In this document: positions 9,068-37,051 of the stretch, in pieces
Numbering within the stretch: position 1 is the stretch's first letter
Layout: each line of letters opens with the position of its first letter
Source of the DNA: Flavobacteriales bacterium
Lineage (GTDB): Bacteria; Bacteroidota; Bacteroidia; CAMBQF01
NCBI GenBank assembly: GCA_031412115.1
Contig: JANOCJ010000363.1
Location: 1-37,051 of the forward strand
Reading direction: 5' to 3'
DNA length: 37,051 bases
Position numbers and translations under genes: made by a program
Notes under the pieces: model-generated
What the model was told of the DNA's origin: nothing
Database searches by the model: none
Seen by the model: only the letters and a program-made list of their open reading frames with translations

Positions 9068-9078
9068 AAGTAAATAGT

Positions 9079-9300: not shown

Positions 9301-9302
9301 TG

Positions 9303-18029: not shown

Positions 18030-18047
18030 CGTGATGATATTTTTAGG

Positions 18048-18055: not shown

Positions 18056-18096
18056 CGTAAATATGTAAAAGATATTCCACCCGCAAAACAAACAGT

Positions 18097-19818: not shown

Positions 19819-19819
19819 G

Positions 19820-20062
19820 ATGATATATAGCGAAGACAAATTTTTACGCCGCATTGAAGAAGAATTTACCGAGATAAAACCGGGCTCATTAACACCCGAA
19901 TCATCTATGCCAAAAATTATTGAGTGGAACTCAATGAACGTGTTATTATTCCTGGCATTTATATCAGAAGACACCGGCGTGCGCGCCAACTACGATGAGG
20001 TAAAACAGTTTGATACCTTGCACGACTTATATTTATTTTTAGGCGAAAGGGTTACAGCCTAA
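19820..20062 (+). CDS. Putative acyl carrier protein-like small protein
   Basis: 80 aa, acidic, placed between the ligase and KAS III with 1-2 nt gaps. The candidate phosphopantetheine Ser is in EWNSMNVLLFLAFI, where canonical ACPs have DSL/DSM. The assignment rests on position, size and a weak motif only. Confidence 0.5.
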   Translation: MIYSEDKFLRRIEEEFTEIKPGSLTPESSMPKIIEWNSMNVLLFLAFISEDTGVRANYDEVKQFDTLHDLYLFLGERVTA

Positions 20063-20064
20063 CA

Positions 20065-21949: not shown

Positions 21950-22575
21950 CGATAGACCTTTACAACATAAAATATACGTTAATTACTGAAGATGATTTAG
22001 AGAAGCTACGCCAATGGCGCAATAGTGAGTATGTACGCTCTAAAATGTTATTTCAAAAAACCATTACACCCGAGGCGCAACTTAACTGGTATAACAGCCT
22101 TGACAAAAGCAAAAATTTCTACTTTATCATATCATCAGGCGGTGTAGAACTGGGCATGTCTAACATCAAAAACATTAATTACGAGAATAAAACCACCGAG
22201 CCAGGCATTTTTTTTATTGACGAAAAATTTTCAAATGGCGAGTTTTCCATCAATTGCGCATTAATAATGATTGAAATATCACTTTACTTTTTTGGGGCCA
22301 AGGAGCTACACTCTATGGCTATGAAAGACAATAAACCGGGCTTTGATTTTAACACCACATTGGGCTTTTTGCCAACGCAAGACCATGCAGACTATGTGGA
22401 TTTTACGCTAACGCGCGAAAATGGGCTAAAAACTACCCAACGCATACGCAAAGCGTTTGCCAAATTGTACAAAACAAGCCCCGATGAAAAGTTGAAAATA
22501 TCTATTGGCAATAACCCTTTTTTGCAACAGGTTTATAATAACTTAGCCGACAAAGAAAATATAGCTTTATGCTAG
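21946..22575 (+). CDS. GNAT N-acetyltransferase, PseH-like
   Basis: 209 aa. LRQWRNSEYVRSKM and the following pattern resemble the PseH-type aminosugar N-acetyltransferase signature. Its start overlaps the upstream stop in an ATGA arrangement. Confidence 0.72.
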   Translation: MTIDLYNIKYTLITEDDLEKLRQWRNSEYVRSKMLFQKTITPEAQLNWYNSLDKSKNFYFIISSGGVELGMSNIKNINYENKTTEPGIFFIDEKFSNGEFSINCALIMIEISLYFFGAKELHSMAMKDNKPGFDFNTTLGFLPTQDHADYVDFTLTRENGLKTTQRIRKAFAKLYKTSPDEKLKISIGNNPFLQQVYNNLADKENIALC

Positions 22576-23339
22576 CTAAAGAAGACTTTATACTGACCAT
22601 ACTGGAGCGCGGCTTTTACCTTGCCAAAAACGTTTTAACGCCCGATTTTGCTAAGCAACTGGCGGCGCATTTAGAAAATAGCATTGAGAAAGAAAATGCT
22701 TTTCACCAAGGGAAAGACCACCCTACTTTTGGGGCCTTACTTAATACTGCATTGTATGGCGGGCCTTTTTTAGACTTGTTGGAAAATGAAAATTTTGTCC
22801 AACCATTTAAGTGGTTTATTGCCGATAATTGCATTATTTATTCCTATTCATCGGCATCGGTGCCGCCAAATAGTAAAATATACACAGCCCGCATCCACGT
22901 TGATTCGCACAGAAAATCGACCGACCACCGTTTGGTGCTTGGGGCTATGGTTTTTTTAACAGGTTTTACTGAAGAGAATGGCTCGCCATATTACTTAGCA
23001 GGTTCACACAAAACAGCAGAGAAGCCGGATGAGGAATATTTTTACAAAAATGCCGATAAAATAGTGGGCGAAGCGGGCGATATATTTTATTTTGACCCCT
23101 TAGTTTGGCACACCGGCAGCTACAACGAAACTAATGATTGGCGCCATGCGCTAACCATAGGCTTTTGCGAGCCTTGGATGAAACAGCGCTTTGATTTCCC
23201 GCGAGTTTTAACCCAAAACGGATTGGATAAAACGATGACAGAAAACCAAAAACATTTACTTGGTTTTTATTCGCAGCCGCCCGTTACCTACGACGATTTT
23301 TATCAAAACACTTACCGATATAACCAAAAGATAGCTTAG
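22569..23339 (+). CDS. Phytanoyl-CoA dioxygenase (PhyH) family Fe(II)/2-oxoglutarate oxygenase
   Basis: 256 aa with IHVDSH (HxD), a distal His in LVWHTGSYN and a downstream Arg (WRHAL). Confidence 0.72.
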   Translation: MLAKEDFILTILERGFYLAKNVLTPDFAKQLAAHLENSIEKENAFHQGKDHPTFGALLNTALYGGPFLDLLENENFVQPFKWFIADNCIIYSYSSASVPPNSKIYTARIHVDSHRKSTDHRLVLGAMVFLTGFTEENGSPYYLAGSHKTAEKPDEEYFYKNADKIVGEAGDIFYFDPLVWHTGSYNETNDWRHALTIGFCEPWMKQRFDFPRVLTQNGLDKTMTENQKHLLGFYSQPPVTYDDFYQNTYRYNQKIA

Positions 23340-24319
23340 TGAAGAAAAAGGCGCTAACATTTGCTAAGCTGTTTCGCATTGCCGACTGGTGGAACTACCT
23401 TATTCCGCCAATATTGTGTTTTGTATACATTGGCTGTTTAAATAATACGCTGCCTTTTAAAGAGAGTATTTTGCCCTGTATAGTAATGTTGGTATCATCT
23501 ATAATAACGGCCTCATTCGGGTTTTATATAAACGATTTATTTGATATTAAAGATGATGCGCTGGCCGGCAAACACAACCAAATTGGGCAGCTAAACAGGG
23601 CATACCGCATACCACTGCTAATTATTCTTACACTATTATCTATTGCCCCGTGGCTACTTACCGATATTGATTTGCATATAAAAGCCTTGCTTATTGCACA
23701 ATATGTATTTTTTATAGGCTACTCTGCACCGCCCTTCAGGCTTAAGAAAAACAAGATATTTGCCTTGCTGCTCGACTCATTATACAGCGGTACCTTGTTT
23801 TATATTATTGCCCTGCTGGTAACCAACAATAACAAATACGTACACCCTTATTTAGTGTATGTTTTATTATTCTGCTGGGGATTTTCTAAGGGGTTACGCA
23901 ATATTTTATTACACGTTATTTTAGACAAAGAGAACGATGAAAAAGCAGACACCAAAACGCTTGCAACGCATTTGCCGCTATACAAATTGTTAAATTTTAT
24001 TTCGTACATAATTATACCACTTGAGGTAACATTTTTTGTTTTACTAATGTGGTTTTTGCTACTAAACTCAAAAGCAGCACTGTTTATTATAATTGGCTAT
24101 GGTTGCTTTTTGCTGTACTTACTTGTAAAACCACTGTTTTTAAAAGATAAGCACGGCCTAATTACTTTTTATCGCCTGAACGATTTTTACGAGATAGTTT
24201 TGCCCGGCCTCATACTGCTAATGCTGGCATACACCATAGATTACCGCTACCTGATAATACTGGCTATACATTATATTCTTTTCCCAAGGGTGTTGCTAAA
24301 ATTGAAAAAAGCATTGTAG
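23339..24319 (+). CDS. UbiA-family prenyltransferase (integral membrane)
   Basis: 326 aa with about 8 hydrophobic helices. The first Asp-rich motif is NDLFDIKDD (NDxxDxxxD) and the second is DKENDEKAD. The GTG start overlaps the upstream stop. Confidence 0.8.
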   Translation: MKKKALTFAKLFRIADWWNYLIPPILCFVYIGCLNNTLPFKESILPCIVMLVSSIITASFGFYINDLFDIKDDALAGKHNQIGQLNRAYRIPLLIILTLLSIAPWLLTDIDLHIKALLIAQYVFFIGYSAPPFRLKKNKIFALLLDSLYSGTLFYIIALLVTNNNKYVHPYLVYVLLFCWGFSKGLRNILLHVILDKENDEKADTKTLATHLPLYKLLNFISYIIIPLEVTFFVLLMWFLLLNSKAALFIIIGYGCFLLYLLVKPLFLKDKHGLITFYRLNDFYEIVLPGLILLMLAYTIDYRYLIILAIHYILFPRVLLKLKKAL

Positions 24320-24364: not shown

Positions 24365-25183
24365 ATGAGCAATGGCAACAACATAATTAATGGTTTGTGG
24401 ATAGGCAGCACGCTGTCGTCGCTAGAACTAATTACCATTAACTCATTTATTGCCAACGGCCATACGTTTAAGCTGTGGGCCTACGAACCTATAAAAACTC
24501 CACTACCGCAAGGCGTAGTTATTGCTGATGCTTCGGAAATTATTCCGGCAAGCTATATTTTTAGGTACAAACACAACAACCAGTTTGGCCACGGAAAGAA
24601 TAGCTTGGCAGGATTTTCAGACCTTTTTCGATATAAACTGCTATATGAAAAAGGCGGCTGGTGGGTTGATATGGATGTAACCTGCTTAAAGCCTTTTGAT
24701 TTTGAAGCAGAATATGTTTTTCGTAACCACCATAAGCTGCTAATGGTTGGCAACATTATGAAATGCCCGCAGGGCAGTGAGTTAATGCTACAATGCTACG
24801 AAGAAGCCAAAGGACAGGTTAATGCCGAAAACCGCGACTGGATGTTGCCCATTACGATATTGAATAATAATATTCTAAAACTAAATCTGGAAAAATACAT
24901 TATTGAGCTATCAAATAAAGATAGCTGGTACGATATACGCAACTTTTTCAGGCGAAAATTAAATGCGCCAAACCATTGGTATGCCTTACATTGGAATAAC
25001 GAAGAATTGGGCAGAAACAGCGTAAACAAAGCATCGCACGTGGCAAATTCACTTTACGGTGAGCTTATAAAAAAATACGGCATTCAGAATATATTGCTAA
25101 CCGGAGTTGATGCTGCTAAGTACCGTTTTAAGCTGAGTTTAACCTTTTTTGTGGTTAATTATTTTTACAAACGCTTTCTATAA
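24365..25183 (+). CDS. DXD-motif glycosyltransferase (GT32 / Gly_transf_sug-like)
   Basis: 272 aa. FSDLFRYKLLYEKGGWWVDMDV is the sugar-binding DXD region typical of this family. Confidence 0.72.
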   Translation: MSNGNNIINGLWIGSTLSSLELITINSFIANGHTFKLWAYEPIKTPLPQGVVIADASEIIPASYIFRYKHNNQFGHGKNSLAGFSDLFRYKLLYEKGGWWVDMDVTCLKPFDFEAEYVFRNHHKLLMVGNIMKCPQGSELMLQCYEEAKGQVNAENRDWMLPITILNNNILKLNLEKYIIELSNKDSWYDIRNFFRRKLNAPNHWYALHWNNEELGRNSVNKASHVANSLYGELIKKYGIQNILLTGVDAAKYRFKLSLTFFVVNYFYKRFL

Positions 25184-26303
25184 GGTTGTAATACTCATTT
25201 ACAATCGAATTTATATCAAACGCATTTCGGATTTTACTTACGCACTCCGCATCTACCAGCGGTTTGTGTTGTTGTTTTTTAGCAAAACAGGCTTCCAACT
25301 CATTTGCTAAAGCAGTATAATCATCGTAATTAATTAATGAGCCATTGCGGCCCGGATGTAACAATTCGTCTGTCCCACTAACAGGTGTAGAAATGATATA
25401 CTTACCCGCGCAAGCCGCTTCTATCAATGTCATAGGCATAGCCTCGTGGGTTGATGTCATTACGTACACATCAGCATTGGCAAAGTATGCGGGCATTTTA
25501 TCGTAATCAACTTTGCCTTCTAACTTTACGTACTCTGCCAAACCATTTGCATTAATATATTGTTCCAATTGGCTGTATAATACCCCATCTCCCACAATAT
25601 AAGCCTTAAATTTAATTTTATTTTTCAGTAGGTTTAATGCTTTAACAAACAATAGCGGGTTCTTTTGTGCTACAAGGCGTCCGGCAAACAAAATGGTTAA
25701 TTCGGCGCTTGCATTGGTGCTACCAATAGAAAACTGCCCTGTATCAATTCCATTAGCAATAACATGGTTGCTATCTATTTTCCCAACCAAATTATCTGCA
25801 TTAATTTTTAACTTCTGCGTAAGAGATATAATAGCCGCAGCTCTTTTACATACCCTATAAATAATAGGATACAAAGGCAAATGATACATTAACATTTTGC
25901 GCGGATAGAAAAAAGGAATATCATGTCCGTGCGAAATAATTACATACGGAATATTGTATTTTTTTTTCAAAAATTGGCCTACAATACCACCCGGAATAGA
26001 GAAATTACAGATAGCAATATCAAACGGTGCGTTGGCGTTATTCTTAAAAAACTGCATAGCCTTACGCATCCAATCATACATTTCCCAAGGGTTTGATTGA
26101 AACGCATGTTGGCGCTTGCTTTTTATGCGATGGATAGTGAGGTTGCCAGCAGTTTCCGTTTCCTTTTCGCCTGTAAAAAAAGCAGTAACAACAGTAACCT
26201 GAACACCTTTAACAGCAAGGCCCTCGGCAATATATTTGGTCATTACCCCGGCCCCGCCCCCAATGGGTGGGTACTCATAATTTAATATTAAAACCCGCCT
26301 CAC
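25155..26303 (-). CDS. Family 4 (GT-B, group 1) glycosyltransferase
   Basis: 382 aa with N-terminal ILNYEYPPIGGGAG and the C-terminal E-x7-E region EAMPMTLIEAACAGKYIIS. Its 3' end overlaps the convergent GT32 gene by 29 nt. Confidence 0.88.
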   Translation of the reverse strand: MRRVLILNYEYPPIGGGAGVMTKYIAEGLAVKGVQVTVVTAFFTGEKETETAGNLTIHRIKSKRQHAFQSNPWEMYDWMRKAMQFFKNNANAPFDIAICNFSIPGGIVGQFLKKKYNIPYVIISHGHDIPFFYPRKMLMYHLPLYPIIYRVCKRAAAIISLTQKLKINADNLVGKIDSNHVIANGIDTGQFSIGSTNASAELTILFAGRLVAQKNPLLFVKALNLLKNKIKFKAYIVGDGVLYSQLEQYINANGLAEYVKLEGKVDYDKMPAYFANADVYVMTSTHEAMPMTLIEAACAGKYIISTPVSGTDELLHPGRNGSLINYDDYTALANELEACFAKKQQHKPLVDAECVSKIRNAFDINSIVNEYYNLIESVCKNN

Positions 26304-27058
26304 TTTGTTATTCTGTTTTTTACAAATATAACAGCAGAAGCAAGCAAAACGGTAAGCATAGCCGAAGACATAATGGAAATAATTACAATATCGCCAAACT
26401 GGTTATCGCGCAGGGGTAGAAAAAACCTACCTATAAATACTAATGTAAAAATAGCAAAAAGCAGGTAATAATATAGCAGTTTATCGGCCTTTTTTATGGG
26501 CTTATACACCGGTATAGGCTGGTTGAATGACAATAGATGCAACACCATATAGCCTAACCCAAACAACGAAAATATGACCTGTAGAAAGAAATATACCTTA
26601 ACAGAAAAAGCTGATGCTATTGAAATATCAGAAGTAATTGTTTCAGGATACATTTTAGTAAATGTAGTATACTCATGCGTCAGGTTATCAAGCGCCAAAT
26701 GCACTACAACAGCAATAAATATAGAAAGTAAAAACACTCCGTACTTCTTCTTTAAATAGCCAATAAAATTAAACGCCAAAATACTTGAATATCGCACATC
26801 AAAAGGTGCCGGCAAGTGGGCTATTAACACATTTCGCACTAGCAAATGAAACAATACACTCATAATAACAGCTAAAGGCATGTACAAACTAAATATGCCA
26901 AATATATTATTTTCAATAATTGGGAAGGTAGAAAAGGTAAGGTACATGTGGCAATCGGGTGCTATGCTACCAAAAAAAAGGCCCGTGTATGAAAAATGCT
27001 TTGGCTTAATCTTTGCCAGTGGCAATACAAATGCGGGATGCGAGAAAGTAAACGGCAT
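26300..27058 (-). CDS. DUF4184-like polytopic membrane protein
   Basis: 252 aa. The N-terminus MPFTFSHPAFVLPL matches my recollection of the DUF4184 family. It has about 6 TM segments and overlaps the GT4 start by 4 nt. Confidence 0.6.
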   Translation of the reverse strand: MPFTFSHPAFVLPLAKIKPKHFSYTGLFFGSIAPDCHMYLTFSTFPIIENNIFGIFSLYMPLAVIMSVLFHLLVRNVLIAHLPAPFDVRYSSILAFNFIGYLKKKYGVFLLSIFIAVVVHLALDNLTHEYTTFTKMYPETITSDISIASAFSVKVYFFLQVIFSLFGLGYMVLHLLSFNQPIPVYKPIKKADKLLYYYLLFAIFTLVFIGRFFLPLRDNQFGDIVIISIMSSAMLTVLLASAVIFVKNRITK

Positions 27059-27093
27059 TGCCTTAAGCTTGAGTTTTATTATATTTGCTAACT

Positions 27094-28098
27094 ATGAAGC
27101 GTACAAAACTAACAATTAATACAGTGGCCAAAACCCTTACACTATTGTTATTGTTTGTGGCCGGCATTACTAGTGCACAAACTACAACTGCCGCCCCAAA
27201 AGATACTACACCTAAAGATACTACCAAAAAGGTTGAAACTATAAAGTTGCAACTGGTAAAACGATTAAATAAAAGCATTGAGCGCACCACGGCTTACCTG
27301 GAAACTGTTCCTGTGGACTCTATTGATATTGGCCTAACCTATGCCTTGCTAGACATTATAAAAAGAAAGTTTGGTTTAAAATTTAAAATGGCCGATAAGG
27401 TTGCTGTTGAAAGTAAGTTTCCTGAATTAAAAACAGGCAGGCTAAAACTTTACGGTATTTTTTATGACAACAACAAATCAATACCATTTACCCAACAAGA
27501 GCTTGATAAGCTTAAAGCAGAGCCTATAACATCATTATACGACGACAAATACCTACTAGGTGTAAGTATGTTTTGCAATGAGTTGCCCACACCGCCTGAG
27601 TATTTAACTACTTTTGCCGCTCGCATACAAAAATACAAGGAAGAACGCACCGGGCTTGACCCAATAACCGCAGGGTTTGCCTACATTAATTTTGATGAAA
27701 ATAATTGTAAAGAAGGAAAACTAAAACTGGACAGCTTATACAATGACATTGCTTTTATTTTGACCAATAAAAACGCCGGAAACTTAAGGGCTTTGTTGGA
27801 TTTGGAGTGGTTTTACAGCGAGCAGATGAATCTTTTGCCACCGGTATTAACATCCGCTATGTTATATAAAATAGGCAAATGCAATTTTTATACTTACAAT
27901 ATGCTTTTTAAGCTGCTTGAATTTCAGAATGAAGATGGCGGTTGGCACATGTTGGTTCAAAAAGGCAACTCATCATACTCTGCAAGCGTAGCATATTTAT
28001 GGCTAATGTTGGAGTTAAAGGCTAATGCTGATTGCATTGATAAAACAGCCGACTTAGAGCGTGAGGATGCTGGCACTCCAATTCCCCCCAAAGACTAG
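27094..28098 (+). CDS. Secreted hypothetical protein
   Basis: The tracked ORF starts at TTG 27085. ATG 27094 gives MKRTKLTINTVAKTLTLLLLFVAGITSAQ, a signal peptide followed by a Thr/Lys/Asp-rich linker. A single QNEDGGWH motif recalls the QW repeats of prenyltransferase/terpene-cyclase alpha-toroid folds. This is the only plus-strand gene in the minus arm. Confidence 0.55.
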   Translation: MKRTKLTINTVAKTLTLLLLFVAGITSAQTTTAAPKDTTPKDTTKKVETIKLQLVKRLNKSIERTTAYLETVPVDSIDIGLTYALLDIIKRKFGLKFKMADKVAVESKFPELKTGRLKLYGIFYDNNKSIPFTQQELDKLKAEPITSLYDDKYLLGVSMFCNELPTPPEYLTTFAARIQKYKEERTGLDPITAGFAYINFDENNCKEGKLKLDSLYNDIAFILTNKNAGNLRALLDLEWFYSEQMNLLPPVLTSAMLYKIGKCNFYTYNMLFKLLEFQNEDGGWHMLVQKGNSSYSASVAYLWLMLELKANADCIDKTADLEREDAGTPIPPKD

Positions 28099-29493
28099 TA
28101 TTTGATTATATAAACGCTCTTCGGGTATTTTCTCAAATATGCTTTTTTCATATTCTGGCAATAGTTGGTAATAGGTATTCAGCTTTTCATTCAACTCATC
28201 AATTTCGGCTAAATTATTGTCTTGTATATATCCACTTACACGCAAAACCGCATTTGCCAAATGGTTGTTTGTTTGTAATGCAATTGCTTGTTCGCGGGTC
28301 AAAGCGTCTTCTTTCCATTTTTTCAGTTGCTCAATATAGCTGTAAAACATAGCTGCATTTTTTCGTTCAATACCTGTTTGTGCAGGCAATACAGTTGCCG
28401 AAAAAGTGGTTATAAAACTTTCGATTTTCGAAGCCGGTAAATTCCAAATGGCAACATTATGGGGCTCATACACAGTATTAAAATAAGCGTTGGCATTAAG
28501 GCTGTTTGCGTATTCAATAAACTGTTGCAATTCAACCACTGTATTGCGCATTGGGCTGTAACAAATGCTAAATTCAGTACCTGTTTGTTTACAGTAGTTG
28601 GCAAAGTATTGTATGTTTTCCATCACCCGCTCATATTTTGAGTTTATGCGGATGGATTCCAGCTTCTCTTTCTCCAACGAATCAATAGATACGCCAATAT
28701 TAAACCTGCCGTTTGCCAGTACTTTTTTCACCTTTTCATTCAGCACCGTGGCATTGGTTTGCACATACATAAGGCAATCGGGACTTAGGGCCGCAATTTT
28801 ATCCCATAGTTGGTAGTATATATCAATCAAAAAAGGCTCACCGCCTAAAAATTTGGCGTATTGCAGGTGCGGTATATATTCTTCCAATTGAGTTACGAAT
28901 GCATTATCATACGGGTAGGGCAAAGGCGCTTGCTTTTCCCTGTTTTTGCGAATGGATGAGGAGCAATAACCGTTACACATAACACACTCTAAATTGCAAG
29001 TGTTGCTCAACTCAAAATCCATACGGGTTGGATACTTGCCCGATGATGTAAAATAATCGTACGTGGCGGCGTTTACGGCCATGTAATTTTTACTCTCTAC
29101 AGCTAATGCACAACGCTGGCATCCTAATGAAAAATCGCCTTCGTCAATATGGCGGCGCAGTTCATCGGCACGTTCTCCATACCAAATATCGTTAATGCTG
29201 TTATCAGGGTACTTGCCTAAATCATACTCGCGGTTAAAACAACATGCGGTTACAGCCCCGGTAGTGCCAAAATAAAGGTTCGAAAATGGGGCATAGCAAA
29301 TTTTTGCACGTGCACCTAAAATGCGGCTTTTGTTATATGCATCAATGTTTTGAGGCGAATTGGCATTGTAATTCTTTTTCTTGCCCAATACAGTAAAAAC
29401 AAAATTGTTGTAACCTTTAATTGTGGCAATAGCAGAACTGCGAAGCAATGGCTTCGATATAACCAGATTACGAATAGATGCGATAAGTCCCAA
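28054..29493 (-). CDS. Radical SAM enzyme with N-terminal SPASM/twitch-like Cys motif (paralog 1)
   Basis: 479 aa. The core is ELSNTCNLECVMCNG (CX3CX2C) with LGGEPFL. It is preceded by CYAPFSNLYFGTTGAVTACC (C-x12-G-x4-C) and GCQRC (CxxC). The TTG start at 29493 is uncertain, and there is no in-frame ATG upstream of the Cys motif. Confidence 0.85.
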   Translation of the reverse strand: MGLIASIRNLVISKPLLRSSAIATIKGYNNFVFTVLGKKKNYNANSPQNIDAYNKSRILGARAKICYAPFSNLYFGTTGAVTACCFNREYDLGKYPDNSINDIWYGERADELRRHIDEGDFSLGCQRCALAVESKNYMAVNAATYDYFTSSGKYPTRMDFELSNTCNLECVMCNGYCSSSIRKNREKQAPLPYPYDNAFVTQLEEYIPHLQYAKFLGGEPFLIDIYYQLWDKIAALSPDCLMYVQTNATVLNEKVKKVLANGRFNIGVSIDSLEKEKLESIRINSKYERVMENIQYFANYCKQTGTEFSICYSPMRNTVVELQQFIEYANSLNANAYFNTVYEPHNVAIWNLPASKIESFITTFSATVLPAQTGIERKNAAMFYSYIEQLKKWKEDALTREQAIALQTNNHLANAVLRVSGYIQDNNLAEIDELNEKLNTYYQLLPEYEKSIFEKIPEERLYNQILVFGGNWSASILTL

Positions 29494-29653: not shown

Positions 29654-31144
29654 TTACTCAAGCAGATAGCCTTCAATTTTATCTATAAACTTAGTATTAT
29701 CAAATATCTCCGTGTCGTATTTAATCCACTCAAAAGGCAATGCATTTAGCTTAACAAGTATTTTATGTTTATCTGTTTGAGCATCCAAAAAATTCACAAT
29801 CAAATTATTAAACTTGTTAAGCGAAAGGATAAATTCATCAGGGTTTAGCGCATGCATATAGCTAAATATTTCTTCTATTTTAGCTAAAAAAATTTGCAGC
29901 AAAATATCATCGCTTACAGCATCCAGCCGGTCAATTTCCTGCTGGCGTGTAATAGCTACTGTGGCCCAGCTTTGCACTTGTTTAATAAACCCTGCAATAA
30001 CTGTAGCATTGTGTTTTTCAAAAAAATTGTTTTGGGTAGGGGTGTATGCCGTTAATACATTTTCAATGGCTTTCAACTTATCGTGGCTCAACGTCCACAA
30101 CGATTGTACTGCAGGTTGCATAACCGTATTAATATTAAGCAACGCGCCTATTTTATTGGCAAACTCAAGCACCTGCGGTAACTCGTTCCAGTTGCTGCGC
30201 AAAGGGCAAAAGCTTAGGGTAAGAAAAGTATTCTTCTTACGCGAGTATTCTGCTAGAAATTGAATATTCTCTATAACCCTATCGTAATTGGCGTTTACGC
30301 GTATGGCTTCGTATGTTTTTTTGTTGAATGAATCAATAGATATTCCAATGTGAAAATTGCCTTTCTCCAACAGGTTTTTTACCTTGGCATTCATAACCGT
30401 AGCATTGGTTTGCAAGCGTATTTCGCAGTTGGGGTTTAAAGTGATTATCTTCTCCCAAATGCTGTAATAGCTATCAATTAAAAATGGCTCGCCTCCCAAA
30501 AAATTAGCCACTTTAAGGTGGGGTATGTATTCATCCAATTGGGCTAAAAACTCAGCACCATAGGGCGAAATAATTGGTGCTTTATGCTCCCTATTTTTAC
30601 GTATGGATGATGAAAATTCGCCCGAGCACATAATACACTCAAGGTTACAGGTGTTTGATAATTCAAAGTCGAAACGCGTAGGGTATTGTGGCTCATCTTC
30701 GGCCTCATAATCATATTTAGCCGCCATTACCGATGAGTAATCGCCCGCAACCAATTGTTGCTTGCAAAGCTGGCAGCCGCCGCCTAAGTCAAAATTATCA
30801 ATGCGCTCTCGCAGTTCATTTGCTTTAGCGCCTTTCCATATTTGAGATATACTGTTTTCCGGATAAAACCCTAACGGCACATCACGGTTATAGCAGCAGG
30901 CCATTACCTTTCCATCAATAGCAAAATACATGTTGTTAAAGGGCGCATAGCACACCTTTTTACCCGGTCCAAACTTGCGGCTTTTGTAATAAGCTTTTAC
31001 ATTTTTCTCAGGCAACGTTCCCTCCGGAACATTGACTGTTGGCAGAAAAGCGTTACGGCCAAATTGGTATACAGATGTTGCCACCTCAAACATTTTGGGT
31101 GGTAAAACCTGTGCTACTTTTTTTATAAATCGGGCCTTGGGCAT
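29654..31144 (-). CDS. Radical SAM enzyme with N-terminal SPASM/twitch-like Cys motif (paralog 2)
   Basis: 496 aa. The core is ELSNTCNLECIMCSG with LGGEPFL. It is preceded by CYAPFNNMYFAIDGKVMACC and GCQLC. Its ATG abuts the stop of the upstream PhyH gene. Confidence 0.88.
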   Translation of the reverse strand: MPKARFIKKVAQVLPPKMFEVATSVYQFGRNAFLPTVNVPEGTLPEKNVKAYYKSRKFGPGKKVCYAPFNNMYFAIDGKVMACCYNRDVPLGFYPENSISQIWKGAKANELRERIDNFDLGGGCQLCKQQLVAGDYSSVMAAKYDYEAEDEPQYPTRFDFELSNTCNLECIMCSGEFSSSIRKNREHKAPIISPYGAEFLAQLDEYIPHLKVANFLGGEPFLIDSYYSIWEKIITLNPNCEIRLQTNATVMNAKVKNLLEKGNFHIGISIDSFNKKTYEAIRVNANYDRVIENIQFLAEYSRKKNTFLTLSFCPLRSNWNELPQVLEFANKIGALLNINTVMQPAVQSLWTLSHDKLKAIENVLTAYTPTQNNFFEKHNATVIAGFIKQVQSWATVAITRQQEIDRLDAVSDDILLQIFLAKIEEIFSYMHALNPDEFILSLNKFNNLIVNFLDAQTDKHKILVKLNALPFEWIKYDTEIFDNTKFIDKIEGYLLE

Positions 31145-32014
31145 TTAGTTGCGCTGTTTAGCAAAGTACCTATAAAAATTGATAAGGTTGAGATTAGCCT
31201 TTTGCAAAGGCTCATGTCGCAACAAACGGTATTTGGCTGATGGGCGTTTGGTAATTTCTTCGGTATAAAAAAACTCGGGTGTAATATCAAAAACATCAAC
31301 CATACCTGCCGGTGTTTGCGCATCGGTAAAATAGTGGCAATAAGGGCTGGCCTTGGGCTTTACCAAGCCGTTTACCGCAAGTCTATAGTTGCTTGTTTGG
31401 TTTGGTGGCGATGAATGTATCATAGCACTATGAAAGATAACCGCTTGGCCCGCCTTTACCATGAGGGGTTTCATAAAGCGGTACATTACCAAATAGTACG
31501 GTATTTTATTAAACTCCCACGGCACGTTTAGCGAGCGTTGCTTATTGCCTAACTTATGGCTGCCCGGCAAAATATGCAGGGTACCATTCTGCATGGTAGT
31601 ATCCTCTAGCGGGCACCAAATGTACACAGCCAAAAACTGCTCTTCATCAACATGCGAACTATCTTGATGCGGGTTTAATTTGCTTTTGCTGCCGGGTGGT
31701 TTTATTTGGTGCACACCCGAAATAAAATCAATTTCGTCAGCAATAAAATACTTTGCAATGCCCTGTTGGTAGTATTTGCGTATAATTTGGGTAGATAGCA
31801 TTCGCATTTCAGCCTCGGGTATGCGCCCGGCAGATTGAAACGTTTTAACGCTACCAAAGCCATTCTCCAACAGCTTATCCATCATCTCGCCTGACTCTCT
31901 CCTCAACCCTTCTATCCCTTCATTATCAATAAAATTTACTATGGCATAACCCTGCTCCTCAATGGTTTGTTGAAGTGCTTCATCTTTAAAAATTTGTGGG
32001 TAGCGCGTTGCCAT
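31145..32014 (-). CDS. PhyH-family Fe(II)/2OG oxygenase (array member 5 of 5 in transcription order)
   Basis: 289 aa with NPHQDSSHVDE (HxD), WCPLEDTTMQNGTLHILPGSH, MIHSSPPN (distal His) and Arg in NYRLAV. Confidence 0.78.
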   Translation of the reverse strand: MATRYPQIFKDEALQQTIEEQGYAIVNFIDNEGIEGLRRESGEMMDKLLENGFGSVKTFQSAGRIPEAEMRMLSTQIIRKYYQQGIAKYFIADEIDFISGVHQIKPPGSKSKLNPHQDSSHVDEEQFLAVYIWCPLEDTTMQNGTLHILPGSHKLGNKQRSLNVPWEFNKIPYYLVMYRFMKPLMVKAGQAVIFHSAMIHSSPPNQTSNYRLAVNGLVKPKASPYCHYFTDAQTPAGMVDVFDITPEFFYTEEITKRPSAKYRLLRHEPLQKANLNLINFYRYFAKQRN

Positions 32015-32016
32015 TG

Positions 32017-32874
32017 TTATAAACTATTATACGCTTTATCAAACTGCTCGGCTGTTAGGTAATTTTCTTTAAACGGCACAGTTTCGGCTTGAAATACTCC
32101 GTTTGGTGTATCAATTGTTTGCGAGTACAAGGCATCGGCAAAGTCTTTGCCGGTATTGTAATTCATAAAAAAATCATAATCTACCACGTACTTATTTAGC
32201 ACATTGGGCTGCGCTGCGTTGCGTACATAATGGTATACCTTATCATTGGCCGGAAGCATAAGCAAACCTGCCGAAACACGGGTATTTAACGTATGATTAG
32301 GGCCTGATGCATGCAACATAGCCTGCGTAAAAATCACTGCTTTGCCGGCAGGTAATTCTAAGCGCTTTTTGTATTTACGTTCTATGTACTTTTTAATATG
32401 GTCGTGCTCTTGCGGAACATTTGCACCGCGCAAGGCGCGCAGTATGCGGTGCGATTTTGGCACTACCTGCAAGCAGCCGTTCCATTTATCTACATCAACC
32501 AAAGGGCACCAAATAAATATGGATTGATATTGGCTTTCATCAACAAAAGTCCAATCCTGATGCACGGTTATTTTATCAAAAAAACTGGGCTTTTTAATCA
32601 GCACGTCCGAGAAAAAAGGGGCGTAATTTGAATGGAACAATGATTTTACTTTCTTTCCAAAAGCTTCTTTAATAAGGCGGTCTACGGTTAGCCTGTATTC
32701 TTTATTACTGCTCCACAACGATGCGTAAAAGCGTTTCTTCACTCCCGAATCCAGCTTCAATAATTTGGTACGTAAGGCATCGCATTCGTCCCTGTTTAGT
32801 ATATCTACCGTAACAAAGCCATTTTCTTTAAACTCGTGGTCTAAAGCCGTATCGTTAAAAATTTGCGCCAGCAT
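32017..32874 (-). CDS. PhyH-family Fe(II)/2OG oxygenase (array member 4)
   Basis: 285 aa with VHQDWTFVDE, WCPLVDVDKWNGCLQVVPKSH, LHASGPN and NTRVS. Confidence 0.78.
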   Translation of the reverse strand: MLAQIFNDTALDHEFKENGFVTVDILNRDECDALRTKLLKLDSGVKKRFYASLWSSNKEYRLTVDRLIKEAFGKKVKSLFHSNYAPFFSDVLIKKPSFFDKITVHQDWTFVDESQYQSIFIWCPLVDVDKWNGCLQVVPKSHRILRALRGANVPQEHDHIKKYIERKYKKRLELPAGKAVIFTQAMLHASGPNHTLNTRVSAGLLMLPANDKVYHYVRNAAQPNVLNKYVVDYDFFMNYNTGKDFADALYSQTIDTPNGVFQAETVPFKENYLTAEQFDKAYNSL

Positions 32875-33701
32875 TATTGGTTAATGTATTTTAACAATTC
32901 CTCCTTGCTCAGTTCAATGTGCTTATTCTCTTTGTGGCCAATAGGTTTAGCTCCTTCGGGGCGGGTTTCTTTTACAAAATTTTCGTAAAAATCAAGCCCA
33001 ATTTCATACACTTCCACCATCTCTTTTGGTAAAAATTTATCCCAGTAATACATAATGGTTTGCACGTCTTTAGGCACCATATCTATCCGCAATGAAACAC
33101 GTGGGCTATCGGCATTGTTGGGTGCTGAATAATGCAATGAACGATTGATAAAAACCAAGGCATCACCGGCTTTCATAGGCACCAATGTCATATGGCTTTT
33201 CTCAAAATAATCGTATAGTTCTTCGTAATAACGTTTAACACCCGGGCCACGTACTTTATTCATAAACTTGTGGCTGCCCCTAAGCATTTGCAGCGCGCCG
33301 TTGTTGGCATCAACATCGCTAAAAGGTATCCACACCACGCACGATTCGTACTTGCTTTCATCTACGCAACTTATATCAAAGTGCATATTTACCTTCGATT
33401 TTTTGCCCTTTGTTTTTACTACAAAGTTGCCGGTCATAGGTACATAATCATTCAAATATATCTCTGCCGAACGGCTAATTGCCTTGCGTATAGACTGGTT
33501 TACGTGGTTTTTATAATTGGGGTCGCTACTATCAATCGTTGAATAATACTTGCGGTCAATATTAGGGTCGTAGCTTTGGTAGGCATTGCGAATAAACTCG
33601 AGTTCCTCAGAATTCAAAAAATTTTTAAATACAACAAACCCGTCATTTTCAATTTGGGTGTTAAAAGTATCCTCCCTAAATATTTTGCGTACACTATCCA
33701 T
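32874..33701 (-). CDS. PhyH-family Fe(II)/2OG oxygenase (array member 3)
   Basis: 275 aa with MHFDISCVDE, WIPFSDVDANNGALQMLRGSH, LHYSAPN and SPRVS. Its stop and the next start overlap as TAATG. Confidence 0.78.
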   Translation of the reverse strand: MDSVRKIFREDTFNTQIENDGFVVFKNFLNSEELEFIRNAYQSYDPNIDRKYYSTIDSSDPNYKNHVNQSIRKAISRSAEIYLNDYVPMTGNFVVKTKGKKSKVNMHFDISCVDESKYESCVVWIPFSDVDANNGALQMLRGSHKFMNKVRGPGVKRYYEELYDYFEKSHMTLVPMKAGDALVFINRSLHYSAPNNADSPRVSLRIDMVPKDVQTIMYYWDKFLPKEMVEVYEIGLDFYENFVKETRPEGAKPIGHKENKHIELSKEELLKYINQ

Positions 33702-33703
33702 CG

Positions 33704-34534
33704 CTAACTTAACTCGTTATAAAATTCCTGCTCTGTTAAAAAATTGTTTTGCTGTTTTACTTTGCCCCTGTATGGTGCATTTTCAGGGGTGCTGCGTTTA
33801 TCATACACATCAAAAAACTGCTCATCAACCCCATAGATTTTTATGCCGCTAAAGGGCCAAAAACGGTTGTTGTAATACAGCACACATTCAACACCCTTGG
33901 GCTTGCACGCTATAATAATAGCAGGCCTTTCGGCACTACTTTTATTGTTTGGCGAGTAATGCAGCAGCGCATTGTGGTAAAACAACCCATCGCCTTTTTT
34001 CATTGGCAACGGTTTTAATAAAGGGCTGTTTAACAAGCCCGGGTAATACTGAGTATAGTACTCTTTAACCCAAGGCCCGCGGGCTTTGTTGGTTATTTTA
34101 TGGCTGCCTTCAATTACGTGCATACAACCGTTAGTCTCGTTTACATCAACCAAAGGGCACCAAACAGTAAGCGATTGGTAATGCGTCTCGTCATAAATGC
34201 TCCAGTCGGTGTGCATAGCTACCACGCTTTGGCTGGCGGGCTTTTTGGTGATGAAGCCTGTATAAAACGCTTGGTAATCTTTACAATATTTTTCTATCTG
34301 CCCGTTTTGCAAAACTGACTTTATGCCACGGTCAACGTACTTGCGGTACTCGGCATCGCCACTGTCGGTAGATGCGTAAAAACCGCGCTGCACTTTGCTG
34401 TCGGCGCTATTAAACATAGCAAACAAAGCAGCAATATCATCGTCGGTCAAAAAAGGCTGTATTACGTAGCCCTTTGCAACAAACGTTTCATTCAATTCTT
34501 TATTTGTAAAAACAGGTATCATAACCCTAGCCAT
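33704..34534 (-). CDS. PhyH-family Fe(II)/2OG oxygenase (array member 2)
   Basis: 276 aa with MHTDWSIYDE, WCPLVDVNETNGCMHVIEGSH, LHYSPNN and AERPA. An alternative start at Met5 (34522) abuts the methyltransferase stop exactly and aligns better with the paralog N-termini. Confidence 0.78.
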   Translation of the reverse strand: MARVMIPVFTNKELNETFVAKGYVIQPFLTDDDIAALFAMFNSADSKVQRGFYASTDSGDAEYRKYVDRGIKSVLQNGQIEKYCKDYQAFYTGFITKKPASQSVVAMHTDWSIYDETHYQSLTVWCPLVDVNETNGCMHVIEGSHKITNKARGPWVKEYYTQYYPGLLNSPLLKPLPMKKGDGLFYHNALLHYSPNNKSSAERPAIIIACKPKGVECVLYYNNRFWPFSGIKIYGVDEQFFDVYDKRSTPENAPYRGKVKQQNNFLTEQEFYNELS

Positions 34535-35304
34535 TTTAAAAAGCCGCTACCTTCGGCGGGCTTTATTAACCGTAGTTCCAGCCATTCGGCGGGGGCAAAT
34601 TCTTTCAGCCCTTTGTAATTATCTATACCGAATTTATCTTCGAACTTGCGGCGTATTTCTATGTCAGAATTAAAGCTGATGTGCTTGATGTAATCAATTT
34701 CAAAACCGCATTGGCGAAAGGCATCTAACGTTTGCGAAAGCCCTAAAGTGCTATAGCTGTAGTTAACGTTCATGTTTTTTATCACCTCGTTTATGCGGGT
34801 CTGTGCAGCTTCATCTAACGATATTTTGTAAAAAAAATCTTTTATGTAAACAAAAGCGCCGGGCTTTAATACCTCGTAAACGCCTTGTACCACTTGGGCT
34901 ACATTGCTTGCATGCCCCAGCGATTCAAGAAACAACGCACCATCAAAAGTGTTTTGTTTGAAGTATTGCGGCAGGTTGTGGTAATCGCCTTCGGTAACGT
35001 CAATTATCTTATCAAGCCTACGGGCATTAACGCGCTGTTTTGCAATGCCTGCCTGCTGTGGCGATACAGTTAAACAACTGAATTTTACGCCTGCCTTTTC
35101 GGCCATGGCAATAGCAGGGCCGCTTACACCCGAACCTGCATCCAGTATATGCTGGCCTTTTTGCAAGCCTGCATTTTGGGCGGTATAGGTTGCCAACTCA
35201 CCATCGCTGGTGGGGCGAAACGCCTGTATTACATCGCCATACACGTCAAGGTACTTTACCGTCCACTCGTCGTAGTATTGCTTTACTTCCTCAACAGTTG
35301 CCAT
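34519..35304 (-). CDS. Class I SAM-dependent methyltransferase (SMT/CFA-synthase-like N-terminal YYDxW...YG pattern)
   Basis: 261 aa with QYYDEWTVKYLDVYGDVIQAF, motif I ILDAGSGVSGPA and a later acidic/loop LFLESLGH. Confidence 0.82.
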   Translation of the reverse strand: MATVEEVKQYYDEWTVKYLDVYGDVIQAFRPTSDGELATYTAQNAGLQKGQHILDAGSGVSGPAIAMAEKAGVKFSCLTVSPQQAGIAKQRVNARRLDKIIDVTEGDYHNLPQYFKQNTFDGALFLESLGHASNVAQVVQGVYEVLKPGAFVYIKDFFYKISLDEAAQTRINEVIKNMNVNYSYSTLGLSQTLDAFRQCGFEIDYIKHISFNSDIEIRRKFEDKFGIDNYKGLKEFAPAEWLELRLIKPAEGSGFLKWLGL

Positions 35305-35306
35305 TG

Positions 35307-36167
35307 TTATGCTGTCTCCAAACCGGCGTTAGCCATTATCTCTTTAAACTTTTTGTAGTTGATGCGTGGGTGCTGATACTCTACCACACGGCTGCTTTTT
35401 ACCTCCTTCGGCTCCTCTTTAATATGAAAATTAAAGTTCAGAAAGAAGTCTTGGTCAACCAAAAGCTCGCGGTATTCGGTTTTAAACAACGATTTTTTGC
35501 GATAGTAATGTATAGCAGGGGCCACTATAGGCTTGGCTATTACCTGTATTACCAAACGGGCATAGCCGCCTTGGTTTGGTTTTGAATAATGGATAATGCT
35601 ATCGTCAAAAATCAAGGCCTCGCCAGCTTTTACGGTTACCGGTTTTAGGTAATCGTGCTTCAACTCCTCAATATACCCTTTAAAAAACCAAGGGATTGTT
35701 GGGCTGCGGTGTATGTTGCGAAAGGTGCGATGCGTACCGGGAATAAACTCCAACGCGCCGCTGTTTTCGCCCACATCAACCAAAGGGGCCCAAACCGATA
35801 CTGAGGTAAATTTATGCTCATCAACAAAGTCCCAGTTTTGGTGTACGGGTACTTCGCCAAGGCCGTGTTCTTTATTTACAAAATTTATAACCAAAGGCTC
35901 GTAGCCGTTTAAATACTTATCAAGCGCGGGGGCAAATACTTTAGAGAGGGTTTCAAACACCTTGCGTTTATACTCCCTATTCGAATCGAGAAAAGAGAAA
36001 TGGTAGCTAACGCTTTTATCCTGTGTGTTAAAACGCTCGTTGGGTTTTTGCTCTTCGTGAAAGCGGCGCAGTTCGGCTATTGTTTCTTCGTCAAACAGCT
36101 TCACTTTTACATAGCCCATTTTATCAAACTCCGCCTGTAACTTATCGTCTAGTAATACTCTGTGCAT
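35307..36167 (-). CDS. PhyH-family oxygenase-like protein with HxN in place of HxD (array member 1)
   Basis: 286 aa. VHQNWDFVDE aligns with VHQDWTFVDE and MHTDWSIYDE of the paralogs. The codons CAC CAA AAC were read on the minus strand at 35843-35835. WAPLVDVGENSGALEFIPGTH, IHYSKPN and YARLV are retained. Confidence 0.78.
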   Translation of the reverse strand: MHRVLLDDKLQAEFDKMGYVKVKLFDEETIAELRRFHEEQKPNERFNTQDKSVSYHFSFLDSNREYKRKVFETLSKVFAPALDKYLNGYEPLVINFVNKEHGLGEVPVHQNWDFVDEHKFTSVSVWAPLVDVGENSGALEFIPGTHRTFRNIHRSPTIPWFFKGYIEELKHDYLKPVTVKAGEALIFDDSIIHYSKPNQGGYARLVIQVIAKPIVAPAIHYYRKKSLFKTEYRELLVDQDFFLNFNFHIKEEPKEVKSSRVVEYQHPRINYKKFKEIMANAGLETA

Positions 36168-36245: not shown

Positions 36246-37051
36246 TTACTCCTCCGCCTTTTGGTTGGCATTGCCTCTTTTATCAAACAAGTGGGTAAAC
36301 TCATCAACCGTATTTACCTGCTTAACAAAAGGCAGCTTTTTAATGCTTTTTTGGTTGGTTACCAGTTTAATGTAGTTAACTATATAAACAGTAGCGCCTT
36401 GGGCCTGTTCGGGCTTCTCAGCTTTAAACTTTTTAATATGGTAGTTGGCCCAAAAAATGGCCATATCGTGCTGATTTTTTTTGTTGTACCAAGTGCGCAC
36501 AAAATATAGAAAATACTTCTCAAGCGTTGGGGGCGTATACACCGGTTTATTGGGCAAAGCAACCTCATCATTAAACACCGAGCGCATGGGCTGTAGGCTA
36601 TCTTTTTGGTACTCAAGTGTTATCCACCCTACATTGGCCATAGGGTTGGGCGCATACATACCCCAGTGTTGCCCAAAGGGGCTTAATTCTTTTAGCGGAA
36701 AGTTGCGCGTATCAAGCACAAAGCGCCCGCCATTTTTAGGGAGGAATGATTTTTTTAGCGGGGTATGAAACACATAAAACATAAGGTTCATAAAGACCAT
36801 ACCGGCAATACTGGCAATAAGGATGTTGCGGGAAACATTACCTAAATTAGCGTAGGGTGTTTTTGAAGTAATTGACGGTATTTGCTTAATACGTAGGCGC
36901 AGTTTCTCCCAAAAAGAAGCAGGCAAAAACAGGGTTGCCATAGTTATAGATATGTAGGAAAAAGTACCCACATCAGAAAACATTAAAATACCAACATGCA
37001 ATGCATAAACCAGTAAAATAGCGGCATAACGCAGGCCATTGCCTTTGCTAA
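36246..37051 (-). CDS. Polytopic membrane protein, 5'-truncated by the window edge (possibly HTTM/gamma-carboxylase-like domain)
   Basis: The tracked ORF starts at TTG 37001, but the same frame stays open to nt 37051 (...SKGNGLRYAAILLVYALHVGILMF...), so the gene probably begins outside the window. The hydrophobic N-terminal part and the HWGMYAPNP motif faintly recall HTTM-domain proteins. The family call is tentative. Confidence 0.55.
   Translation of the reverse strand, partial: SKGNGLRYAAILLVYALHVGILMFSDVGTFSYISITMATLFLPASFWEKLRLRIKQIPSITSKTPYANLGNVSRNILIASIAGMVFMNLMFYVFHTPLKKSFLPKNGGRFVLDTRNFPLKELSPFGQHWGMYAPNPMANVGWITLEYQKDSLQPMRSVFNDEVALPNKPVYTPPTLEKYFLYFVRTWYNKKNQHDMAIFWANYHIKKFKAEKPEQAQGATVYIVNYIKLVTNQKSIKKLPFVKQVNTVDEFTHLFDKRGNANQKAEE

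Follow-up and report, generated by a model that had tools for sequence, protein, structure and literature searches.

The contig JANOCJ010000363.1 from a Flavobacteriales bacterium (assembly GCA_031412115.1), a stretch of 37,051 nucleotides (nt) that we refer to as the window, carries on its minus strand, at 31145-36167, six back-to-back open reading frames (ORFs). Five encode oxygenases of the PhyH family (PhyA to PhyE) and one, second in the array, encodes a class-I S-adenosylmethionine (SAM)-dependent methyltransferase (ORF list and Pfam; Table 1), the placement given in an earlier note on this DNA. Arrays of this kind recur in related loci, in which one member, of the PhyA type, has a variant metal site and several others the canonical one. 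We consider it likely that the array tailors a single scaffold serially, as a cassette, and about an even call that, together with its context, it builds a membrane-anchored glycoconjugate; the chemistry, the order of steps and the identity of the scaffold given below are those that we infer. Related loci from genome and metagenome scans are given L-numbers, and proteins of a global protein library P-numbers.

All five oxygenases match the Pfam PhyH profile (PF05721) at 69.1-80.2 bits (E-values 8.5e-19 to 3.4e-22), against a curated gathering cut-off of 22 bits, so that the profile search places them in the family to which the earlier note had assigned them and not in unrelated ones. The facial triad H-x-D...H is present in PhyB, PhyC, PhyD and PhyE. 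Both facial-triad histidines are invariant in the aligned proteins, as is the arginine that binds the C5 carboxylate of 2-oxoglutarate (2OG; R204 in PhyA), which is shared by all six PhyH-family proteins of the window, the more distant PhyH6 included. By family, PhyA to PhyE are predicted to be Fe(II)/2OG oxygenases that catalyze 2OG-dependent oxidation. The best sequence neighbors among solved structures, found with a PhyE profile, are PhyH and PHYHD1 (E-values 1.3e-16 and 8.9e-14), and there are weak matches to the NCBIfam entry 'sporadic carbohydrate cluster 2OG-Fe(II) oxygenase' (E-values 1.7e-10 and 7.7e-10).

The five paralogs share 27-32% pairwise identity (BLASTP E-values 1e-27 to 6e-50) and, at the DNA level, no similarity beyond one 23-nt motif. 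Each is closer to its orthologs in other genomes (40-58% identity) than the five are to one another, and in a neighbor-joining tree of 145 domains every window paralog groups with proteins of other loci and not with its array neighbors. Given this grouping, the duplications are older than the divergence of these lineages. On the sequence evidence, then, the duplication is old and not locus-specific, with specialization since, as the earlier note had proposed from the strong divergence of the five; the locus-specific clade that it suggested looking for is absent, each paralog falling instead in an orthogroup that extends to other genomes. The orthogroups of PhyA and PhyE are broad; that of PhyE is the most widespread, and its members elsewhere usually adjoin a pair of UbiA and GT32 genes. 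Orthologs of PhyD occur in L002, L020, L022 and L038, two L022 paralogs cluster with PhyB and PhyC, and an ortholog of PhyC (54% identity) occupies the same position in L038.

PhyH6, encoded in the plus-strand arm of the window, had been counted as a sixth member of the array. It shows 16-31% identity to PhyA-E, gives no significant BLASTP match to four of the five, and matches the Pfam PhyH profile only in its C-terminal half. Judged by these comparisons, PhyH6 represents a different, distant PhyH subfamily and is not a sixth paralog of the array; a count of six oxygenases of one family was thus too high.

The methyltransferase, in turn, was described as interrupting the array, whereas its distribution identifies it as a conserved component. 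Orthologs with 33-49% identity are found in most related loci, and in Brevundimonas the array is reduced to two genes, a tri-PhyH fusion (H-x-D, H-x-D, H-x-N; WP_300444728.1) followed only by a methyltransferase, among housekeeping genes. The window protein matches Pfam Methyltransf_11 (47.3 bits) and CMAS (38.5 bits), and also CMAS/CfaB and UbiE-type profiles; among solved structures, 3bus (1.3e-11), MitM and the D-glucose O-methyltransferase 6uv6 (2.3e-9) come nearest to it.

All genes of the array share one strand, and at every junction the stop codon overlaps the next start or lies within a few nucleotides of it, the spacing expected of an operon. As read from the sequence, gaps of 2 nt separate PhyA from the methyltransferase, PhyB from PhyC, and PhyD from PhyE. 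The methyltransferase and PhyB overlap by 16 nt (34519-34534) from the first ATG of PhyB, or by 4 nt (ATGA) from the ATG at 34522, and the 4-nt overlap is the one called in L036, an 81%-identical relative. PhyC and PhyD overlap by 1 nt in TAATG at 32874, and PhyE abuts the radical-SAM gene rSAM1 exactly (31145/31144, 0 nt). Overlapping and abutting stop and start codons of this type suggest translational coupling. Promoter and terminator consensus scans of the window gave match counts equal to the shuffled expectation, that is, chance level. As a lead rather than a result, TATCTTTG at 36195-36188, 21 nt upstream of the PhyA start, fits what we take to be the Bacteroidetes-type TAnnTTTG motif.

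The variant metal site of PhyA

The H-x-D backbone that the earlier note ascribed to all five proteins holds in PhyB-E and fails in PhyA, which reads H109-Q-N111, then D188-D189-x3-H193, with R204 kept; the H-x-N motif, the most distinctive feature of the array, had been missed. PhyA lacks the canonical H-x-D/E...H facial triad and is still a family member by profile and fold. An AlphaFold2 model of PhyA, the only protein modeled (pLDDT 90.3, pTM 0.91), has the double-stranded beta-helix fold; compared with the PDB using Foldseek, it gave 408 matches at E<=1e-3; of the 50 matches listed, nearly every one is a PhyH-like Fe/2OG enzyme, with HygX at the top.

To place this variant in a wider context, we took a census with a hidden Markov model (HMM) built from the five window paralogs, which found 374 domains in the related loci. 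Complete domains comprise 283 with H-x-D...H...R, 61 with H-x-N and five with H-x-G. The arginine aligned with R204 is present in 349 of the 374 domains; the others are mostly cut by locus ends, and one has serine. The H-x-N domains found in genome loci all belong to the PhyA orthogroup, and every genome locus with at least four domains has exactly one H-x-N member (15/15). These 15 loci were found through PhyE and are therefore unbiased for PhyA. The asparagine is accompanied by acidic residues elsewhere: aspartate occupies both positions -5 and -4 from the distal histidine (FDDSIIH, D-x3-H) in all 61 H-x-N domains, compared with an acid at -4 in 13 of 287 H-x-D domains and in none of the H-x-G domains. 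The distal histidine, Ser195 and the 2OG-binding arginine are invariant in PhyA-type proteins.

In HygX the facial triad takes the variant form H-x-G...E-x3-H, its acidic residue being relocated, and the reaction catalyzed is oxidative cyclization to an orthoester, not hydroxylation (PMC13374393). PhyA has a comparable signature, H-x-N...D-x3-H, in which the position normally held by Asp is vacated (Gly in HygX, Asn in PhyA) and an acid stands four residues before the distal histidine; HygX is the top structural match of PhyA, and sequence comparison gave no homology between them. By analogy, the iron ligands of PhyA-type enzymes would be H109, D189 (or D188) and H193, with a relocated carboxylate, and these enzymes would carry out a distinct, obligatory step.

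A vacated carboxylate position also recalls the Fe(II)/2OG halogenases (SyrB2, CytC3, CurA Hal, WelO5), which have the same fold and in which H-x-A/G replaces H-x-D and no protein carboxylate binds the iron. Because the asparagine of PhyA is accompanied by a new aspartate, an open halide site is unlikely. The five window genes all lack the halogenase signature H-x-A/G; five paralogs of related arrays have H-x-G and no acid that would compensate for it (L003 6780-7637, L004 7950-8813, L008 2224-3075, L023 240-1097 and L019 6912-7832). WelO5-family genes themselves flank arrays in L034, L038, L039, L051, L066, L072 and one further contig.

PhyA might instead be a shared non-catalytic or auxiliary subunit forming heterodimers with the H-x-D paralogs. 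For this there is a precedent in the TlxI-J heterodimer, including its fused version TalA, in which TlxI has neither the 2OG-binding arginine nor the lid loop (PMC11880133). TlxI-J and TlxA-C, of fungal meroterpenoid biosynthesis, are paralogous and sometimes fused Fe/2OG pairs that perform many consecutive oxidations on one scaffold, and TlxI-J is among the listed Foldseek matches of PhyA. A subunit of this type would account for the single H-x-N member of each array, and would fit the frequent fusion of one H-x-N domain to one or two H-x-D domains in a single polypeptide. However, some fusions hold H-x-D domains only (P0105, P0108), the Tlx enzymes are fungal with a terpenoid substrate, and PhyA keeps the arginine that TlxI has lost. 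Indeed, the PhyA type retains both histidines, the arginine and Ser195 and gains an invariant Asp pair beside the distal histidine, a pattern that points to a working metal and 2OG site. We therefore regard an auxiliary role as improbable and retain the reading of PhyA as an enzyme with a relocated ligand.

Related loci, domain fusions and the scaffold

Homologs of PhyE number 38, and homologs of PhyE and PhyA come only from metagenome-assembled genomes (MAGs) and metagenomes; those that bear a name at all are annotated as 'phytanoyl-CoA dioxygenase family protein'. Scanning genomes with PhyE as the seed gave 27 loci, nearly all in Chitinophagales MAGs, with a few in Flavobacteriales, Saprospirales and Microthrixaceae, and a metagenome scan seeded with PhyA gave 80 more. 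Of the loci that span 10 kb or more, which number 59, at least four PhyH domains are present in 39, at least six in 24 and at least ten in five, with a maximum of 14 in L017 and L021. L038 keeps the order of the window, PhyA-methyltransferase-PhyB-PhyC-PhyD-PhyE-rSAM-rSAM, at only 40-56% identity.

Fusions tie the same components together. A profile search of 1.84 billion representatives returned 1744 proteins at E<=1e-30, with numerous two- or three-domain fusions among the top-scoring ones. ORFs of about 604 amino acids (aa) are tandem di-PhyH fusions, and tri-PhyH proteins are also found; other multi-domain PhyH fusions include P0103 and P0106. P0194 combines a methyltransferase, UbiA and two PhyH domains; P0247 consists of PhyH, UbiA, a middle region with only a sub-threshold SQHop_cyclase_C match, a second PhyH and TPR; P0124 joins three PhyH domains to Asp_Arg_Hydrox. 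The last three place their components in one pathway. A 527-aa ORF in L005 with PhyH and methyltransferase matches is an apparent PhyH-methyltransferase fusion, and in L014 a 678-aa ORF with a GT32 match stands where the UbiA/GT32 pair is expected and is a candidate UbiA-GT32 fusion.

As judged by mapping the window proteins onto these loci and by Pfam-annotated gene calls, the set of genes recurring around the arrays comprises the methyltransferase, the UbiA/GT32 pair (in 25 of 33 loci), N-twitch radical-SAM enzymes, a small family 2 glycosyltransferase (GT2) and ABC exporters. In many loci the gene immediately upstream of PhyA encodes an ABC-2 membrane protein (ABC2_membrane), and seven loci contain an ABC ATPase whose C-terminus carries a long extension. 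More variable neighbors encode DegT, FdtA, carbamoyltransferase, GDSL, Asp_Arg_Hydrox (of the LpxO/OlsC type), FA_desaturase (with Cyt-b5), B12-type radical-SAM and WelO5-type halogenase proteins.

Co-occurrence in dozens of loci, the gene order of L038 and the two- to three-domain fusions strengthen the case, already made in the earlier note, for serial function on one scaffold. They also bear on the possibility that the paralogs are independent enzymes, such as catabolic oxygenases for different imported substrates, brought together only by tandem duplication. TonB-dependent receptors do flank the locus, and the substrate ranges of PhyH enzymes are very broad; yet distant genomes have inherited together the orthologous sets of paralogs, their order, the methyltransferase and the single H-x-N member, with fusions even among these, and the neighbors are biosynthetic. 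Orthologs of the paralogs travel together rather than each in a separate, unrelated context, and we consider independence highly unlikely.

In the mechanism that we propose, the six array genes would form a co-transcribed tailoring cassette of a biosynthetic locus of about 19 kb (about 18.1-37 kb). The substrate would be a membrane-anchored sugar or oligosaccharide, polyprenyl-phosphate-linked and/or N-acylated, built by the UbiA/GT32 pair, an ArnC-like GT2, a family 4 glycosyltransferase (GT4) and an acyl module of fatty acyl-AMP ligase (FAAL), acyl carrier protein (ACP), ketoacyl-ACP synthase III (KASIII) and GNAT. PhyB-E would each oxidize a different position of the same intermediate, hydroxylation being the default reaction. 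PhyA, its acidic iron ligand moved from the H-x-D to the D-x3-H position, would act in a manner analogous to the oxidative cyclase HygX. The methyltransferase would methylate one of the groups involved, probably a hydroxyl, and C-H chemistry that needs no O2 would be contributed by the two N-twitch radical-SAM enzymes. The glycoconjugate would be modified at the cytoplasmic face and then exported by an ABC transporter.

A glycoconjugate is ranked first on account of the context of glycosyltransferases (GT2, GT4, GT32), DegT, FdtA, carbamoyltransferase and ABC-2 exporter genes. It is further favored by the sugar O-methyltransferases among the nearest solved relatives of the methyltransferase, by the structure and sequence neighbors HygX, AviO1, EvdO2, EvdMO1 and SnoK/SnoN, all of which act on sugar moieties, and by the weak 'sporadic carbohydrate cluster' matches of the oxygenases.

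Several points weigh against this picture. The operon structure of the array is inferred from gene spacing. A relocated carboxylate in PhyA is what motif covariation and the analogy with HygX suggest; HygX is not detectable from PhyA-type proteins by sequence search, and the Foldseek matches of PhyA are flat (E about 1e-10, TM about 0.5), indicating fold and not substrate specificity. Fourteen oxygenases, the maximum observed, are many for a small glycan. The Brevundimonas tri-PhyH fusion and its methyltransferase have no glycosyltransferase nearby. Lipid-type partners recur, namely the UbiA fusion, Asp_Arg_Hydrox, FA_desaturase with Cyt-b5, the CMAS-like methyltransferase profile and GDSL lipases, and would fit an alkyl or isoprenoid chain equally well.

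These last observations also support a scaffold that is a hydrocarbon chain, in which the array would poly-hydroxylate, and the methyltransferase C-methylate, a UbiA-installed isoprenoid or an ACP-tethered or N-linked fatty acyl chain, to give a membrane lipid or a secreted one that is polyhydroxylated and, in some lineages, chlorinated. The fusion of methyltransferase, UbiA and two PhyH domains speaks for such a chain, as does that of PhyH and UbiA with a weak squalene-cyclase-like domain; so do the FAAL-ACP-KASIII module of the locus, the B12-type radical-SAM and WelO5 genes of related loci, the UbiE-type as well as CMAS/CfaB matches of the methyltransferase, and the many C-H sites that up to 14 oxygenases require. 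The solved sequence neighbors PHYHD1 and PhyH, moreover, act on acyl-CoA-type lipids. On the other hand, the most constant neighbors are glycosyltransferases, sugar aminotransferases and ABC-2-type exporters, the nearest solved homologs of the methyltransferase act as O/N-methyltransferases on small molecules and sugars and are not cyclopropane synthases, and the window holds no isoprenoid-chain synthase or terpene cyclase of significant score. We judge a hydrocarbon scaffold rather unlikely. A lipid-linked glycoconjugate is the most likely scaffold and a polyoxidized isoprenoid or acyl chain comes second, although the data do not decide between them.

Four loci (L009, L010, L012 and L014) have a PhyE-UbiA-GT32 core with three to five N-twitch radical-SAM genes and no PhyH array. 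As a hypothesis, radical-SAM arrays, which need no oxygen, may in some loci take the place of the oxygen-dependent PhyH arrays.

The remainder of the locus in the window

The genes around the array are listed in Table 1. Both radical-SAM proteins downstream of PhyE align over nearly their full length with the NCBIfam model NF033640 (N_Twi_rSAM), scoring just under its 170-bit cut-off as close outliers. They have the CX3CX2C motif (CNLECIMC/CNLECVMC), a Pfam SPASM match at residues 65-128 (65-127 in rSAM1) and a Radical_SAM match from residue 161, and the pair is kept in L002, L036 and L038.

Table 1. Features of the array and its surroundings in the window
Feature	Position	Strand	Description
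PhyA	35307..36167	-	Gene 1 of array; PhyH oxygenase with variant metal site; Pfam PhyH 69.1 bits
Methyltransferase	34519..35304	-	Gene 2 of array; class-I SAM-dependent; Methyltransf_11/25 and CMAS matches
PhyB	33704..34534	-	H-x-D-type PhyH oxygenase; Pfam PhyH 80.2 bits
PhyC	32874..33701	-	H-x-D-type PhyH oxygenase; Pfam PhyH 69.6 bits
PhyD	32017..32874	-	H-x-D-type PhyH oxygenase; start overlaps PhyC stop; Pfam PhyH 76.4 bits
PhyE	31145..32014	-	H-x-D-type PhyH oxygenase, final array gene; Pfam PhyH 72.2 bits
rSAM1	29654..31144	-	Radical-SAM, N-terminal twitch/SPASM-like Cys cluster; adjoins PhyE; N_Twi_rSAM 167.1 bits
rSAM2	28054..29493	-	Paralogous N-twitch radical-SAM; N_Twi_rSAM 167.8 bits
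Secreted 337-aa protein	27085..28098	+	Signal peptide, Thr/Pro/Lys-rich linker, 'QNEDGGW' motif
DUF4184 membrane protein	26300..27058	-	Zn-dependent phospholipase C-like; Pfam 123.5 bits; in 7 related loci
GT4 glycosyltransferase	25155..26303	-	Pfam Glycos_transf_1, Glyco_transf_4
GT32-type Gly_transf_sug (DXD)	24365..25183	+	Pfam PF04488 32 bits; paired with UbiA
Divergent UbiA-superfamily prenyltransferase	23339..24319	+	NDxxDxxxD motif; Pfam UbiA 29.9 bits, cut-off 34.2
PhyH6	22569..23339	+	Distant PhyH-family oxygenase; Pfam PhyH 58.9 bits, residues 90-194 only
PseH-like GNAT	21946..22575	+	Acyl module (18097..22575)
ArnC-like GT2	21110..21949	+	Small GT2 beside acyl module genes
KASIII	20065..21120	+	Acyl module
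ACP-like protein, 80 aa	19820..20062	+	Acyl module
FAAL-like AMP-ligase	18097..19818	+	Acyl module
TonB-dependent receptor	15291..18149	-	Flanks biosynthetic genes
ABC exporter	13302..15062	+	Flanks biosynthetic genes
HTTM-domain membrane protein, C-terminal part	36246..37001	-	Vitamin-K-carboxylase-like; upstream neighbor of PhyA

The radical-SAM genes invite a further reading, that the cassette matures a peptide made by the ribosome and modified post-translationally (RiPP), with the SPASM/twitch radical-SAM enzymes and the oxygenases cross-linking and hydroxylating a precursor. These genes give weak NCBIfam matches to peptide maturases, and Asp_Arg_Hydrox and B12-type radical-SAM genes, as in proteusin-type pathways, are present in some related loci. 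Their best match, however, is N_Twi_rSAM and not a peptide maturase; no conserved short ORF fits the operon gaps, of which the only ones are 160 nt and 78 nt; and no protease, RiPP recognition element (RRE) or leader-peptide gene was found. The constant partners are glycosyltransferase, UbiA and acyl-module genes. We consider peptide maturation very improbable.

One set of short ORFs was examined as candidate precursor peptides. In L034, a non-coding unit of about 650 bp is repeated at least four to five times at about 2000-5700, upstream of a six-gene PhyH array, and the 34-aa ORFs of this locus are identical spurious calls within these repeats and are not credible as precursors.

Although the window UbiA-like protein scores below the Pfam cut-off, its orthologs in related loci are called UbiA; sequence searches of the PDB with UbiA and GT32 gave nothing usable. 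The FAAL-ACP-KASIII-GT2-GNAT module also adjoins PhyH arrays in L030, L032, L043, L045, L051 and the further contig noted above for its WelO5-family gene, and a TonB receptor adjoins FAAL in L020 and in that same contig. In the window, the receptor ORF as listed begins at a GTG (18149) and thereby shares 53 nt with the start of the divergent FAAL gene. Its signal peptide (MRKLYVLLLL...) begins 40 codons downstream of the listed GTG, so the true start probably lies near 18029, and receptor and FAAL are probably divergent neighbors.

The secreted 337-aa protein has no Pfam match even at E<=1 and no NCBIfam match, and is conserved only in the closest relatives, L002 and L036. We rejected it as a terpene-cyclase-like repeat protein, the match being confined to a short QxxDGGW-like motif (E 0.13). 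Within the arrays of L055, L059 and L066 there recurs a protein of 335 aa that matches the squalene-cyclase repeat just below threshold (25.2 versus 26.1 bits); it is not significantly similar to the window protein. Upstream of PhyA, the listed TTG start of the HTTM ORF is an artifact of ORF listing, the frame probably continuing upstream past the window end; full-length homologs are 502 aa in L036 (8417-9925; Pfam HTTM 28.7 bits) and 494 aa in L003. The window also holds a type IX secretion system (T9SS) sorting domain and SusC-like TonB-dependent receptors, features by which its genome would be assigned to Bacteroidota. At the far end, a segment of low GC content (0.31-0.36, versus 0.40-0.46 around it) extends over 2459-9375, between tRNA-Cys (2459-2534) and tRNA-Phe (9302-9375). 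It encodes a serine resolvase (3121-3744), a 593-aa zinc-ribbon protein, a helix-turn-helix (HTH) protein and a tyrosine integrase (7642-8892), and is probably an integrated mobile element beside a tRNA gene.

Known systems and significance

Orthosomycin tailoring, by HygX, AviO1, EvdO1/EvdO2 and EvdMO1 in hygromycin B, avilamycin and everninomicin biosynthesis, is the closest analogue known to us. As in the array, these oxygenases have a PhyH-like double-stranded beta-helix, and several paralogs act with methyltransferases on one glycosidic scaffold; EvdMO1 is itself a methyltransferase-oxygenase fusion, comparable to the apparent fusion in L005. AviO1, EvdO2 and EvdMO1 are matched by sequence (E-values 5e-6 to 9e-5). 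Sequence identity, however, is only 13-22%; orthosomycin clusters belong to actinomycetes and have one to three such oxygenases, versus 5-14 here, and the context of the arrays, in Bacteroidota with UbiA, GT32, N-twitch radical-SAM, ABC-2 exporter and acyl-module genes, is unlike theirs. PhyH and PHYHD1 share with the array the Pfam family and the 2OG-binding arginine, and with PhyB-E the H-x-D...H triad, but they are single-copy eukaryotic or housekeeping enzymes with an acyl-CoA substrate, and have no array, no partner methyltransferase and no H-x-N...D-x3-H motif.

Full-text literature searches on this system or its variant metal site returned no paper describing either, and a review of lipid-modifying radical-SAM enzymes makes no mention of N-terminal twitch enzymes. 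The family to which the oxygenases add new members is a known one; what appears to be undescribed is the architecture of the arrays, with its rule of one variant in each, together with the H-x-N...D-x3-H motif and the cluster family that goes with them. To our knowledge, PhyH-type oxygenases normally occur as single tailoring genes. The arrays described here have 4-14 domains and a fixed rule, one variant-site member with several canonical ones and one methyltransferase, and belong to a family of about 1,700 representative clusters (E<=1e-30) annotated only as 'phytanoyl-CoA dioxygenase family protein'.

A broader proposal, which we offer tentatively and consider somewhat unlikely as a whole, is that PhyA-type enzymes (H-x-N...D-x3-H) form a natural subclass, new among Fe(II)/2OG enzymes, whose carboxylate ligand is relocated. 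Theirs would be the committed oxidation, one other than hydroxylation (an oxidative cyclization, for instance), of a new class of lipid-linked glycoconjugates that are heavily oxidized, methylated and in some cases halogenated. Bacteroidota would make these compounds, as would, in reduced form, Actinomycetota, Alphaproteobacteria and possibly cyanobacteria, with 3-13 H-x-D paralogs, or N-twitch radical-SAM arrays in their place, diversifying the product by strain.

The perfectly covarying change from H-x-D to H-x-N with D-x3-H makes it possible to test, in a clean case, whether a ligand of the 2-His-1-carboxylate triad has been relocated. The array itself is a natural set of co-evolved C-H oxidation catalysts, presumably of different regioselectivities on one scaffold, and as such would be useful for biocatalysis and for the study of how selectivity evolves. 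Radical-SAM arrays that apparently stand in for oxygenase arrays hint at aerobic and anaerobic routes to similar chemistry. For the environmental Bacteroidota that carry them, these loci point to an uncharacterized, probably cell-envelope or secreted, glycoconjugate or lipid.

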